Below, piece by piece: positions 46,493-55,533 of a stretch of 64,000 nt of DNA; position 1 is the stretch's first letter; every line of letters begins with the position of its first letter. Location of the stretch: positions 3,738 to 67,737 of the forward strand of contig DAOULT010000027.1 in the NCBI GenBank assembly GCA_034417895.1, given 5' to 3'. Position numbers and translations under genes: made by a program. Below the pieces are notes generated by a model, which had not been told where the DNA came from, made no database searches, and was given only the letters and a program-made list of their open reading frames with translations. The DNA is from Anaerolineae bacterium. Its GTDB lineage: Bacteria; Chloroflexota; Anaerolineae; CAZYHC01.

Positions 46493-47461
46493 TTATGTGC
46501 GCGCTACTCCCTTGCCACGAACGATATCCCAAACTCCCTCCAACCAACCTTTTGCCCAACGCAGGCTGCGACTCGGGTTGCGATTGCAGAAGGACAGCAC
46601 CAGCAATCCAAGCGTCGCCCACAGGTAATAGAAAATGCATGACCGACAGCTAGGATACACATTCTTAAAAAAAAGATAATGGTGATTAATTAGATACATT
46701 TTATACCTGGCAGCGATTTTTTGATCCGGTAACCGAGGCTTATTATGAATCAGGACAGCTTCGGGATTGTAAAACAGCTTATGATTCCTGGAGACACGGT
46801 AGGAAAAATCAACGTCTTCCATAAAGCTGTAGTCGGAGAGTGCTTCGTCAAACGCAAAATCCTGAAGAACGTCTGCGCGATAGGCCATCGAGCACCCACT
46901 TAAAATGTCAACCTCAAGGAACTCTGGGCGTCCATAGGAATGGGTCGGCAATCCTGATTTTTGTAACCTGCCGGAGCCTCCAGGTCGCTGGAGGTAGAAT
47001 AGGCGCTGTAAGATATAGCGAATGTCTCGCGTATTGACGGTGACCCCTTGGATCGTTCCCATGCCACCCATGTATTCAGGGTGTGCTTCAAACACCTGCA
47101 TCATTTTAGCGATGTAATCCGCCATAAGAACCACATCGTCATCGAAAAAGAAGACGATATCGGCGTTGGCCCGTGCAATGCCCCGGTTGCGTTGTAATGT
47201 CAGTCCCCGTTCCGTATGCAGGTAGTCCAACTGCGTATCAGGAAAATAATACTGGCTGGAAAACGCGCTGTTGAAAGCAGGGAAGGTATCCATGCGCGGC
47301 TCGCTGCTGTCCACAACGATCAACTGGTCAACTGGCCGGGTTTGGCTGGCAATGGAGTGCAAGCAGGCCACCAGATCATCCGGACGGTTCAATGTACAAA
47401 TGACTATCCCAGCAGATAAAGAACTACTACTGTTTGAAAGTGTCATTCCGATCATTGACAC
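46493..47461 (-). CDS. Glycosyltransferase family 2
   Basis: [29 protein letters not shown]...EDVDFS. Confidence 0.9.
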
Positions 47462-47579
47462 CTATGCCTGCTACTTGGAAACCGTGGGTGGCAAACATCG
47501 CCGCTGTGGGGAGGCCAATATATCCGAGGCCCAGAACACAGATCTTTTCGAATCCAACGTCTGAGGACGTGGCTTCCAC
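47427..47579 (-). pseudogene. wecC: 5' stub of a nucleotide-sugar dehydrogenase (WecC/WbpA-like)
   Basis: Hand translation from GTG 47579 (RBS AGGAGG): [50 protein letters not shown]. The Rossmann start is intact and the stop follows 50 codons. Confidence 0.8.
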
Positions 47580-47617
47580 CGATTCTCCTCCTCATATAGA
47601 GTTTGCTCAACGCGCAG

Positions 47618-47626
47618 TGGTATAAT
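47618..47626 (+). promoter_or_regulatory. Extended -10 element (TGGTATAAT) facing into the cluster leader
   Basis: Perfect TGnTATAAT with no clear -35; immediately precedes a long hairpin. Confidence 0.4.
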
Positions 47627-47793
47627 GGAACAGGCCTAAAAACAATAATCTCGCCAGAGTGGATTTGCCTCCGGCCAGATTTCTATACTACCTCTCGTCG
47701 GGGTGCCAGATCCACCCTGGCCGCTGCCTCGGGCTCTGTCTCAGCCGCGAGGTTTTGTTTAGGACGACGATAAAGTACCCTCAGAGCTTTTTG

Positions 47794-47822
47794 ATTATAC
47801 CACAAACTCCTCTCGCCCGCAA
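47794..47822 (-). promoter_or_regulatory. Sigma70-type promoter of the glycan cluster
   Basis: Minus strand TTGCGG-N17-TATAAT with TG extension, about 215 nt upstream of the first gene. Confidence 0.65.
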
Positions 47823-48012
47823 ATTTTGTATTTGCCGGGGGCGTGCGTCAGGATGGGGGTGAGTTTCAAGCGGCTCTTGATGAGGCACGCTTCATGCACA
47901 ACTGTGTACTACCATCCCAGGCAGGTGACTGCCAGGGGCGCCCGTCCCAGGAAGTTCATCCTGAAGTAACGGCAGTCAGGGGGTACGTAATTAATGGACT
48001 CGATAAGTGGAA

Positions 48013-50178
48013 TCAGGGAGCGGGCGTGAGGGTCGGCGCTGGAGTGATCTCGAAGCCAAAGAAAGCCTCGATTACCTGCCGGAAGATGGGGGCCGCCACC
48101 TTGGAGCCTTCGCCGCCCTGCTCGATCACTACGGCCACGGCGATCTGGGGGTCGTCGGCCGGGGCGTAACCAGCAAACCAGGCGTGAGGTTCGTCGCCGG
48201 GGTTTTCAGCCGTGCCGGTCTTACCGGCCACCGGCACTTCCAGGCCCGCAAAAGCCTCTTTAGCCGTGCCGTAGGATTGGGTGGTCACCCCCAGCAGCGC
48301 TTCCTGGATGACGGCCAGGTTTTCCGCGCTGAGGGGCAGGCGGCCCATCTCCTGCGGGGCAAAGGTCTGTTCCGGCTCCTCTGGTAAGGCGTCCACTCTG
48401 AGAATGGCTTGAGGGTGATAGAGGATGCCCCTGTGGCCTATGGCCGCCAGCATGACGGCCACCTGCAAGGGCGTAACCAGCATGTAGCCCTGCCCGATAG
48501 CCAGGTTGACCGAATCGCCCGGAAACCAGGCTTCGCCCAGGGCCTCTCGTTTCCAGGCCGGGTCAGGGGCCAGGCCGGCCGCCTCGTCGAAACCTTCCAG
48601 GCCGGTCGGACGGCCCAGGCCGAACTGTCGGGCGTAGCCGGCCAGTAGAGCGCGGTCGCGTTCGTCACAGTACTGGCCCAGCTCGTAGAAGACCACGTCG
48701 CAGGAGGCGGTCAGGCCCGCGCTCAGGCTGATCGTGCCATGTCCTCGTTTCAGCCAGCAGGTCTTGGTCCAGGCTGGCCCCAGGCCCTGCCAGGTGCCGG
48801 TGCATTCGAAGGTCGAGTCTGGCGTGAAGTCTCCCTCTTCCAGGGCCACAGCCGTGGTCACGATCTTAAAGACCGAGCCTGGGGCGTATGTGCCCTGAAT
48901 GGCCCGGTCGAGGAGGGGCTGGCTGGGGTCAGATAGCAGGGCCTGCCACTGTTCGGTCGTCATCTTGGCGGCGAAGAAGTTGGGGTCGAAGGTTGGAGAA
49001 CTGGCGATAGCCAATATCTGGCCGCTGCTGGGATCGAGGGCCACAATAGCTCCCACCCGCTCGCCCAGGATGGCCTGCACCTTCTCCTGAAAATCGCGGT
49101 CTATGGTGCTGTAGATGCTGCGGCTGGGGGAGGCAGACCGTTCCTGGAGAGTGGTCACCAGGTCGCCCTGGGGGGTGATGACGGTCAGCACCCCTCCCCG
49201 TCGGCCGGCCAGGTATTTTTCTCCCCAACGCTCCAGGCCGGCCTTGCCCACCAACTCATCTCCGCCATAGCCTCTGGCGGCCCACAGGGCCAGCTCGGCC
49301 TGGTCTATCGGCCCCAGGTAGCCTATCAGGTGAGCGGCCAGACCGCCAGGACGGTAGGCGCGGACGTAATCCTGCCGGAGTTCGACGCCGGGCAGGTTAT
49401 CCAGGACGTGGGCGTGGGCCTCGTAGGTTTCCACCGAGATGTCTGCGATAGGAACGAACCAATCGGGCCGGGCGGCGGCGTATCTGGCCTTGATCTTCTC
49501 CGCTTCCAGGCCGGTGATGCGACTCAACTCCGCCAGAAGCCGCGCTTCGTCCTCGATGCGGCCAGGTACCGCCCCCACCACGACCACCACTCCTTCGGTA
49601 GCCAGGCCCCGCCCCTCGCGATCGTAGATGTTGCCCCGCGAGGGAATGCGGTCGATCATGTGCAACAGCATGGTGTCGCCCAGTTCGGGCAGGATGAGCC
49701 TGGGAGACCAGTCTATCCCCCAGCGGGCGCCTTCCTGGTCGCTTTCCGGGGAGCTTTCCAGGGAGAGGGTCATGGTATTCTCGGCCTCGATGGGGCCGAC
49801 CAGGATCGTGTCCAGGGTCAGGCTATAGGCCACCTGAGCGCGGTCGCCTTTCTGGAGCGCGGAACGCAGCCGGGTGGCGACGGAGATGATGGTCGCCTCG
49901 GCCGCCACGTCCTGGTAACGCTCGACGAAAGCCTGGCGGCTGATGGCCGCTTTGGCCCCGGAGGACAGGAGGTCGTACATGGCGTGGTAGTCGCCGAGTT
50001 CCCAGGCTTGCAGGAAAGCCTGGGCCGCCGCTTCGGAACGGGGCGGGATGGGCGTGGCCGTCGGCTCAAATTGCAGGAAAGAGGACAGCGACTGGCAGGA
50101 GAGAGAGAATAACACCACGACCAGGAGGAGCGTCCAGCTATACCTTTGAATTGCTGTGACCCTTTTGTTGCCCTTCAT
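48013..50178 (-). CDS. Class B penicillin-binding protein (PBP2/MrdA-like) with lipoprotein signal and NTF2-like N-domain
   Basis: FSLSC lipobox; PGSVFK (SxxK), SCD, KTGTAE, HAWF. Start moved to ATG 50178 because a consensus promoter lies inside the ORF-track extension. Confidence 0.9.
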   Translation of the reverse strand: MKGNKRVTAIQRYSWTLLLVVVLFSLSCQSLSSFLQFEPTATPIPPRSEAAAQAFLQAWELGDYHAMYDLLSSGAKAAISRQAFVERYQDVAAEATIISVATRLRSALQKGDRAQVAYSLTLDTILVGPIEAENTMTLSLESSPESDQEGARWGIDWSPRLILPELGDTMLLHMIDRIPSRGNIYDREGRGLATEGVVVVVGAVPGRIEDEARLLAELSRITGLEAEKIKARYAAARPDWFVPIADISVETYEAHAHVLDNLPGVELRQDYVRAYRPGGLAAHLIGYLGPIDQAELALWAARGYGGDELVGKAGLERWGEKYLAGRRGGVLTVITPQGDLVTTLQERSASPSRSIYSTIDRDFQEKVQAILGERVGAIVALDPSSGQILAIASSPTFDPNFFAAKMTTEQWQALLSDPSQPLLDRAIQGTYAPGSVFKIVTTAVALEEGDFTPDSTFECTGTWQGLGPAWTKTCWLKRGHGTISLSAGLTASCDVVFYELGQYCDERDRALLAGYARQFGLGRPTGLEGFDEAAGLAPDPAWKREALGEAWFPGDSVNLAIGQGYMLVTPLQVAVMLAAIGHRGILYHPQAILRVDALPEEPEQTFAPQEMGRLPLSAENLAVIQEALLGVTTQSYGTAKEAFAGLEVPVAGKTGTAENPGDEPHAWFAGYAPADDPQIAVAVVIEQGGEGSKVAAPIFRQVIEAFFGFEITPAPTLTPAP

Positions 50179-55058: not shown

Positions 55059-55126
55059 ATTTAAAGAGCCGCTGGTACCACCATCTGGCCCTTAAGCCAA
55101 CACTTAAGTGAACGGAACCGTAACAC

Positions 55127-55155
55127 TTGCAAGAGGCATGAAGCCATGATATAAT
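55127..55155 (+). promoter_or_regulatory. Second sigma70-type promoter upstream of the kinase
   Basis: TTGCAA-N17-TATAAT with TG extension. Confidence 0.65.
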
Positions 55156-55533
55156 ATTTTAGAACTTATGAACATCTTATCACAGCCCTGAGTAAGCAAG
55201 GCCTCATCCGATTCTCCCCGCCGGTGAGGCAACAAGCCTGACCCTGGCCATCTGACCGCCAGCAGACACGGTCCAGGCTGCTCTGAGTTGCAATTCAGCC
55301 GTTGGGCGAGCTGGGGCCGGGTCATTGTTGCCCTGGAGCTTTAGCGACGACGGACTAATGGAAACCCGAGCAGAGAGCAACTTCCCCACCAGGTAACTAC
55401 CCCCGAGGCTTCCTGTGTGGCGCTGTGGCACGTGTGTTCCGCGGCGCTTATGTGTTTTTTATGGAGATAGCCTGGCTAGTCAGTGGGTGACCCAGCGAGG
55501 GGTGAAAGGTGAGGAGCCGAGGAGGAACCTCCT

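Follow-up and report, generated by a model that had tools for sequence, protein, structure and literature searches.

The window, by which we mean the whole 64,000-nt stretch of Anaerolineae DNA analysed here, contains a pronounced hairpin in front of a long minus-strand gene cluster. This raises the question of whether a lone antisense sRNA is encoded opposite the operon leader or whether the hairpin is part of something else. An earlier note on this DNA, made from the letters alone, had proposed the former, namely a 129-nt rod-like plus-strand RNA starting behind an extended -10 motif. The building blocks of that proposal were confirmed by re-reading the sequence: the closing stem pairs 47635-47653 with 47748-47763, the inner stem pairs 47654-47667 with 47707-47720, and TATAAT on the plus strand (47621-47626) precedes the hairpin by 8 nt. 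The convergent minus-strand promoter is likewise there, with its extended -10 at 47794-47802; the first start codon (47579) follows about 208 nt downstream. Compared with shuffled sequences, the plus strand of 47618-47763 folds at -54.0 kcal/mol (z -2.95; 1 of 200 shuffles does as well), the minus strand of the same 146 nt gives z -2.15, and the full minus-strand leader, 47638-47787, reaches -58.2 kcal/mol (z -2.98; 0 of 200 shuffles do as well). Moreover, the hairpin region is strongly conserved, in the form of a repeat family that is found in its own genome, in a congener and across the class. The hairpin is a real structure, but it is one copy of a cassette and not a lone antisense sRNA gene.

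A BLAST search of the own assembly with the intergenic region returned seven places, and iterated nhmmer raised the number in the same genome to 14 near-full copies and 10 partial ones; about 20 copies are present in the congener. A covariance-model search, for which the model was built on the three-hairpin form described below, located the element in 37 of 150 other sampled Anaerolineae genomes. Counted by genus, with the own genome included, 32 of 100 carry it, usually with one to three copies each, and a phylum-wide sample of 150 genomes contained a single genome with a match. A scan of genome contigs with a 20-nt motif was dropped, as this motif is GC-generic and gave chance matches in many unrelated phyla.

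In the window the cassette unit extends from about 47632 to 47822 (~190 bp). Read on the gene strand, which is the minus strand here, the order in the family consensus is a promoter (P1), an A-rich tract, the hairpin H1, the hairpin H2a, a conserved unpaired block, the terminator hairpin T and a U-run. The parts that belong to the sense transcript are the following.

47817-47822, minus strand: -35 hexamer of P1, TTGCGG (sequence; TTGCnG in the family alignment)
47794-47802, minus strand: extended -10 of P1, TGGTATAAT (sequence, family alignment and promoter scoring)
47638-47787, minus strand: predicted sense leader RNA of about 150 nt, comprising H1, H2a, T and the U-run (fold and covariance model)
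47726-47753, no strand assigned: hairpin H1, the first leader hairpin on the minus strand (covariation)
47697-47721, no strand assigned: hairpin H2a, the arms of which are segments 1 and 2, predicted target stem-loop of the leader (fold and covariation)
47638-47678, minus strand: terminator T, the arms of which are segments 3 and 4, with its U-tract (covariation and folds)

The -35 and -10 elements of P1 are separated by 17 bp in the family alignment, and the sense leader is predicted to start near 47787 on the minus strand. A simple scorer finds a P1-like promoter in about 34 of the 40 family members, with much lower values in opposite-strand controls, and in the family no conservation was found upstream of the P1 -35. 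Scored against the covariance model, the window leader reaches 127 bits (E 4e-31). The stem of T is formed by 47669-47678 and 47650-47659, with a 9-nt loop between them, and is directly followed by the U-tract (47638-47649), which is the canonical form of an intrinsic terminator placed before the downstream gene. In 24 of 27 copies the minimum-energy fold includes T. U-rich sequence comes after T in 27 of 28 members, and the distance from T to the downstream start codon is 10-90 nt. The loop of H2a is hypervariable among copies.

Several variants of this layout occur. Copies of the genus (own genome and congener) have P1 about 40-62 nt before H1, compared with about 13-27 nt in most other genera, and the extra leader of about 25-30 nt between P1 and H1 is conserved within the genus. 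In a diverged sub-type H2a is missing, while H1, P2 (the internal promoter described below) and T are retained; it is found at L016:1033-1199 (minus strand), at L040:2690-2815 (plus strand) and in L070, and in L016 and L040 it precedes homologous genes, the products of which are 68% identical. Ten loci of the own genome (e.g., L026-L032) are promoter-only copies, with P1 and the first part of the leader and without hairpins, directly upstream of genes for Uma2, Usp, an AbiL-like ATPase, a methylase and unknown proteins. The window itself contains a partial second cassette at 55125-55232 on the plus strand, which has P1 (17-bp spacer, TG), the leader and only H1; H2a, P2 and T are missing, and it lies about 300 nt upstream of a gene for a 1540-aa 7TM-PAS-GAF histidine kinase.

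Which fold does the family support? The rod of the earlier note is an alternative pairing of the same segments that make up the three-hairpin form. Within the genus, 88.6% of the cells pair in the three-hairpin form and 13 double-change cells were counted, compared with 5.5 in shuffles (0 of 500), whereas in the rod form 84.2% pair and no covariation above shuffles is seen; the rod is the minimum-energy fold of only one of 27 copies. In a class-wide alignment of 40 sequences, which was fitted to the covariance model and hence favours the structure of that model, 92.1% of the cells pair compared with 72.8% in shuffles, double-change cells number 182 compared with 50, and 25 of the 27 pairs show compensatory changes. 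For H1 these are 9 of 10 pairs, with 98% (outer) and 88% (inner) of the cells paired and about 2% G-U; for H2a they are 6 of 7 pairs with about 3% G-U, and for T all 10 pairs with about 13% G-U. The wobble pairs of the hairpin had been taken to favour the plus strand, a reading that does not hold in the family, as the terminator helix is the one with many G-U pairs, and it has them when read on the minus strand. The scarcity of G-U in H1 therefore suggests that H1 folds on both strands, and its frequency in T that T folds on the minus strand only. This contrast between H1 or H2a (2-3%) and T is as would be expected if H1 and H2a fold in two transcripts of opposite direction.

A candidate source of the second transcript is found inside the cassette itself, where a further promoter, P2, faces P1. 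On motif evidence, the leader thus contains an antisense promoter that is convergent with the sense promoter, and both extended -10 promoters are conserved in the family. The antisense parts are as follows.

47665-47689, plus strand: P2, with the -35 TTGCCT at 47665-47670 and the -10 TATACT at 47684-47689
47697-47761, plus strand: predicted countertranscript of about 65 nt, two hairpins and a U-tail (fold, if P2 fires)

P2 is located between H2a and the T loop on the strand opposite to the leader, and the T loop carries its -35. The best-conserved bases of the family lie outside the helices, in the unpaired block and the T loop, and class-wide the columns with the highest information read, on the plus strand, TTG, a 17-bp spacer and TG-n-TA-nnn-T. 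The TTG of the -35 has a frequency of 0.89-1.0, as have TG at -15/-14, T-12, A-11 and T-7 of the -10 region, and the three middle bases of the -10 reach about 0.6-0.7. Judged from these frequencies, the profile is that of a sigma-70 promoter and not that of an RNA motif, and the conservation of the unpaired bases can be explained by the presence of P2 on the other strand. A riboswitch, to which conserved unpaired bases might otherwise point, was rejected, as the downstream genes are functionally unrelated. With the simple scorer P2 is found in about 37 of 40 members, with a mean score of 10.0 compared with 2-7 for the controls. A generic promoter scan called P2 in the copy L014 and both P1 and P2 in L067, while shuffles gave about 0.5 hits. 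In the most divergent copy of the own genome, P2 is nearer to the consensus than in the other copies.

The predicted P2 transcript runs from the base of the H2a complement to the H1 complement and a U-run. The product would be a small stem-loop antisense RNA that carries its own terminator and whose sequence is the complement of the leader's 5' part. The stretch 47696-47763 folds into two hairpins at -29.3 kcal/mol, the countertranscript fold of the canonical copy L014 has a z of -3.64, and the median predicted length class-wide is 65.5 nt. Its predicted terminator is H1 read on the plus strand together with the T-run 47753-47760, and the A-rich tract before H1, which is U-rich after the H1 complement, is present in 26 of 28 members. 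In the window copy P1, H1, H2a and T are intact, but P2 has a spacer of 13 bp and has lost the TG, which is due to a deletion of 4-5 nt specific to this copy. Therefore, the antisense arm is probably inactive here and P2 is probably dead; the window copy may have lost this arm through the P2 spacer deletion.

The claim of an antisense RNA over the leader hence survives in part: a plus-strand RNA is likely for the family, whereas the promoter chosen in the earlier note and the 129-nt rod form are not borne out. The conserved internal promoter would instead give the two-hairpin RNA at 47697-47761. The promoter in question is a single motif.

47618-47626, plus strand: extended -10 of the earlier note, TGGTATAAT (sequence; outside the cassette)

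Taken literally, the earlier proposal says that a rod-shaped plus-strand sRNA starts at about 47634 from this motif and ends at the H1 complement. The extended -10 is perfect, the plus-strand fold has the z of -2.95 given above, the H1 complement with its T-run would end such a transcript, and an outside promoter could substitute for the window P2, which looks dead. The motif is nevertheless outside the repeat: it has no counterpart in any other copy, the flanks of other copies show no similarity at the site that matches 47621-47626, and no -35 was found at a usable spacing. Together with the lack of covariation of the rod, this makes the literal proposal quite improbable. A 6S-like RNA, which had also been considered, does not fit either. 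6S RNA is a rod of about 180 nt with a central bubble and is normally encoded by one or two genes per genome. The element in contrast is present in 14-20 copies per genome directly in front of genes, its family fold consists of three hairpins and not of a rod, and no 6S match was obtained from Rfam at E<=10. In general, the Rfam search of 46500-49000 returned nothing at E<=10, and that of the whole window nothing at the gathering score; matches in 46500-49000 at permissive E values were set aside as chance only, and a search for tRNA and tmRNA found none.

What could such an arrangement do? We see about an even chance that 47632-47822 is a portable Anaerolineae cassette acting as a countertranscript-controlled attenuator in front of downstream genes. 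P1 would transcribe the leader, in which H1 and H2a are followed by T and the U-run before the gene. P2 would produce the countertranscript. This RNA would be a perfect complement of the leader's 5' half and would pair with the leader during its synthesis, the first contacts probably being made loop to loop at H2a and at H1. This pairing would remove segment 2 as a competitor, so that T forms and transcription stops before the gene, while pairing of segments 2 and 3 would preclude the terminator. Read-through would be expected when the output of P1 exceeds the supply of countertranscript, and head-on collision of polymerases from P1 and P2 would add to the control. The repeat family, the covarying helices, the two promoter motifs, the two terminator-like ends, the orientation towards downstream genes and the kinds of these genes were observed; that both RNAs are produced, and that their pairing controls termination, is what we infer.

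The attenuator depends on a competition between segments, and this can be followed in the family. Segment 2 and the bases that directly follow it have two possible partners, namely segment 1, which gives H2a, and segment 3. Segment 1 can also pair with segment 4; the combination of 2:3 and 1:4 is the rod, which excludes T. Duplex stability was compared between cognate and non-cognate segments of 27 non-redundant members, and the resulting permutation p-values, which are overstated because the members are related, were the following.

Pairing 3:4, cognate versus non-cognate: p 0.0002
Pairing 1:2, cognate versus non-cognate: p 0.0002
Pairing 2:3, cognate versus non-cognate: p 0.0006
Pairing 1:4, cognate versus non-cognate: p 0.0002
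Pairing 1:3, negative control: p 0.59
Pairing 2:4, negative control: p 0.10

The gain in energy for 2:3 is small, with a mean of -10.8 kcal/mol for cognate and -9.3 kcal/mol for non-cognate pairs. Since relatedness inflates the p-values and the 2:3 gain is small, the predicted switch between 2:3/1:4 and T is supported but not established. The suggestion of an attenuation-type leader, made earlier as an antitermination leader, stands insofar as the structure is part of the minus-strand operon's leader and contains a terminator and an alternative pairing. In most copies the terminator form is favoured without any antisense RNA, by about 1-18 kcal/mol, and therefore the leader might terminate by default. 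Given such default termination, the antisense RNA could be dispensable or act in a different way.

A promoter of its own and a strong terminator, which is favoured in 24 of 27 copies, would also suit a stand-alone sRNA gene. The stretch from P1 to T would then encode an abundant trans-acting sRNA of 125-150 nt with a leaky terminator, the gene behind it would be served by residual read-through, and the P2 antisense RNA would merely tune or degrade the sRNA. A few class-wide loci without a close co-oriented protein gene, some of which have a convergent gene or a tRNA gene, would agree with this. Yet a gene of the same orientation, equipped with a ribosome-binding site of its own, comes within 10-90 nt of nearly all copies, which leaves no room for another promoter, and copies without P1 exist inside co-directional gene pairs. 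Furthermore, a trans-acting sRNA would not usually have 14-20 diverged paralogues whose loops are hypervariable. We therefore regard a stand-alone sRNA as unlikely. The same low weight is given to a pure promoter-collision device or insulator, in which interference alone acts, the ends made of a hairpin and a U-run stop the polymerases, and RNA-RNA pairing is not involved. Both promoters and both terminator-like ends are conserved, as such a device would demand, and interference between convergent promoters is documented for RnaG-icsA (PMC2879508). However, collision leaves unexplained why T stands between P1 and the gene to be expressed, why 2:3 and 1:4 show cognate-specific complementarity, and why G-U pairs are nearly absent from the helices common to both transcripts.

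The genes behind the cassette point in the same direction as its architecture, namely to a control element for whatever follows it. A co-oriented gene lies immediately downstream in 23 of 24 copies of the own genome, and this holds in the congener and in most class-wide loci too. Wherever a start can be read, a separate ribosome-binding site serves the downstream gene, 10-90 nt beyond the unit. In some cases P1 is missing and the copy lies between co-directional genes. In the own genome, the genes that follow encode the family-2 (GT2) glycosyltransferase of the window, Wzz, a GAF response regulator, a C5 methylase, an N4/N6 methylase, a type IIG enzyme, HNH and Uma2 nucleases, an AbiL-like ATPase, a WYL regulator, MttB and Usp, and class-wide there are NACHT, CHAT, SNF2/ResIII, MazF and trypsin-TPR genes. 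These downstream genes are mutually unrelated. PADLOC defence models were matched by 8 of 10 selected downstream proteins, some with E below 1e-100, and most copies precede single defence genes. Copies of the congener are at non-orthologous sites and precede genes that are mostly absent from the own genome, and therefore the cassette is tied to the accessory gene pool. The one downstream gene shared with the congener (89% identity), taken for a comparison of filled and empty sites, gave no usable site pair, as the homology begins 180 nt beyond the element, where the contig ends. In L057 and L062, which belong to different families, a co-oriented tRNA-like sequence, judged by eye and possibly tRNA-Arg, takes the place of a protein gene about 95-130 nt beyond the element, and in L069 a tRNA-like gene, also judged by eye, is on the opposite strand. 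These tRNA-like neighbours could mark integration sites of islands or a different use of the cassette.

A multicopy, hairpin-rich element at non-orthologous sites beside accessory genes in two congeners could likewise be a selfish MITE-like repeat without regulatory function, whose resemblance to promoters and terminators is incidental, and its A-rich and U-rich ends can indeed pair. Against this stand the orientation bias of 23 of 24, the maintenance in about a third of the sampled genera, the compensatory changes in 25 of 27 pairs and the fact that the promoter-critical bases are the best conserved ones. Neither terminal inverted repeats nor target duplications are evident at the cassette ends, which are a promoter and a U-run, and a family-specific 29-nt pattern gave no match in viral contigs. 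A MITE was rejected on its ends, its flanks without duplication and its orientation, and we consider a merely selfish repeat very improbable.

At the window locus the cassette stands at a junction, and two coding features behind it have to be distinguished.

47427-47579, minus strand: remnant of a UDP-sugar dehydrogenase gene, 50 codons (Pfam UDPG_MGDP_dh_N, E 6.5e-10)
46493-47461, minus strand: first intact downstream gene, encoding a family-2 glycosyltransferase (Pfam Glycos_transf_2, E 4e-20)

The remnant, the N-terminal part of a UDP-glucose/GDP-mannose dehydrogenase, has an intact ribosome-binding site and start codon and is truncated where the GT2 gene begins. It was probably the original first gene behind the leader, and it looks like the scar of a cluster replacement behind a conserved leader. 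According to the ORF map, the GT2 gene heads a long minus-strand polysaccharide cluster, which the window copy is predicted to drive. Near 47900 the G+C content falls from about 0.65 in a penicillin-binding protein gene to about 0.50 in the polysaccharide cluster, which is consistent with a horizontally acquired island that starts at the cassette. On the other side, 47871-47969 of the plus strand shows 85% DNA identity to a stretch of an HTH_28/rve_3 transposase gene (L009 ORF 617-1903), the genome in question belonging to another family. This segment has a stop codon at its end and most likely represents the remains of a transposase gene, not an ncRNA. From the dehydrogenase remnant, the drop in G+C and the transposase remnant it follows that the cassette lies at a recombination junction between core genome and acquired island. 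The cassette would thus be the control region of a large polysaccharide cluster within a region that is a patchwork of recombination scars.

The closest counterparts among known systems are plasmid-borne. In pT181, countertranscript attenuation uses recognition by kissing hairpins (PMC3753616). As in pT181 RNAI/II-repC, the cassette has a predicted small antisense RNA from a promoter inside the leader that is complementary to the 5' stem-loops. As in pT181-type attenuators, the cassette has an intrinsic terminator directly ahead of the regulated gene, and an upstream segment is predicted to compete with it; this terminator is T, with its covarying pairs and U-rich tail, between the target region and the gene. 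The countertranscript attenuators of Gram-positive plasmids also include pIP501 RNAIII-repR and pAMbeta1. Unlike these, the cassettes are chromosomal and dispersed, with 1-20 copies per genome, occur in Chloroflexota (Anaerolineae) and stand in front of defence, polysaccharide and signalling genes instead of a replication gene. There is also no sequence or Rfam similarity, the antisense -35 of the cassette is in the terminator loop, and the function of the cassette is predicted. Among the Rfam countertranscript families, ctRNA_pT181, ctRNA_pND324, CopA, RNAI and RNA-OUT gave no match, at E<=10 in 46500-49000 or at the gathering score in the whole window.

A second relative is RnaG-icsA of the Shigella flexneri virulence plasmid, where two convergent promoters are about 120 nt apart, the antisense RNA induces a terminator and interference adds to the effect (PMC2879508). 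The promoters of the cassette are likewise convergent. However, RnaG has 450 nt and a single locus, whereas the predicted RNA of the cassette has about 65 nt and the cassette is multicopy, and the RnaG-induced terminator is inside the overlap, whereas T is beyond it and predicted to be stable on its own. In IS10 RNA-IN/RNA-OUT and R1 CopA/CopT, the sense and antisense promoters face each other, and a stem-loop antisense RNA of about 70-90 nt overlaps the 5' end of the sense RNA; these pairs act on translation or RNA stability and belong to a transposon or a plasmid replicon. The face-to-face promoters are alike, but the cassette has a downstream intrinsic terminator. ToxIN, a type III toxin-antitoxin system, consists of a promoter, a structured RNA, a leaky terminator and then the defence gene. 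Although this layout is similar, the cassette has unrelated downstream genes and an internal antisense promoter, and it lacks tandem RNA repeats; a type III system was rejected for want of a defining feature. Type I toxin-antitoxin systems were rejected as well, as no ORF is conserved on either strand and most members have no ATG ORF at all, and so was leader-peptide attenuation, a 5-codon mini-ORF being present in some copies and not conserved; the absence of a conserved ORF on either strand therefore excludes both a leader peptide and a type I toxin. Antitermination leaders of the JUMPstart/ops and EAR types were rejected because of the lack of Rfam matches and the position of most copies before single defence genes.

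Overall, the element can be described as a known type of RNA control in a variant that recurs across the class, for which the structure and the promoter motifs are well supported and the mechanism is what we infer. What is known of the control of self-toxic immunity genes, such as those for restriction enzymes, abortive-infection ATPases and NACHT/CHAT effectors, comes mostly from protein regulators. If many unrelated defence genes are preceded by a conserved cassette that works through RNA only, this would be a further, portable solution of a different type. A wider reading, which is possible though rather doubtful, is that the copies form a class-wide family of self-contained RNA gates of about 190 bp that travel with defence and acquired genes, are mutually orthogonal, and provide potentially self-toxic immunity genes with an expression threshold or a burst on entry. 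If this were true, a cell could hold a dozen or more mutually orthogonal antisense attenuators, each with its own loop sequences, and the regulation of defence systems would gain a layer that had not been recognised before. The cassette itself would extend countertranscript attenuation from a few plasmid replication systems to chromosomal accessory genes in a poorly studied phylum. Furthermore, the family would supply natural, diverged pairs of attenuator and antisense RNA, similar to those that synthetic biologists engineer from pT181.
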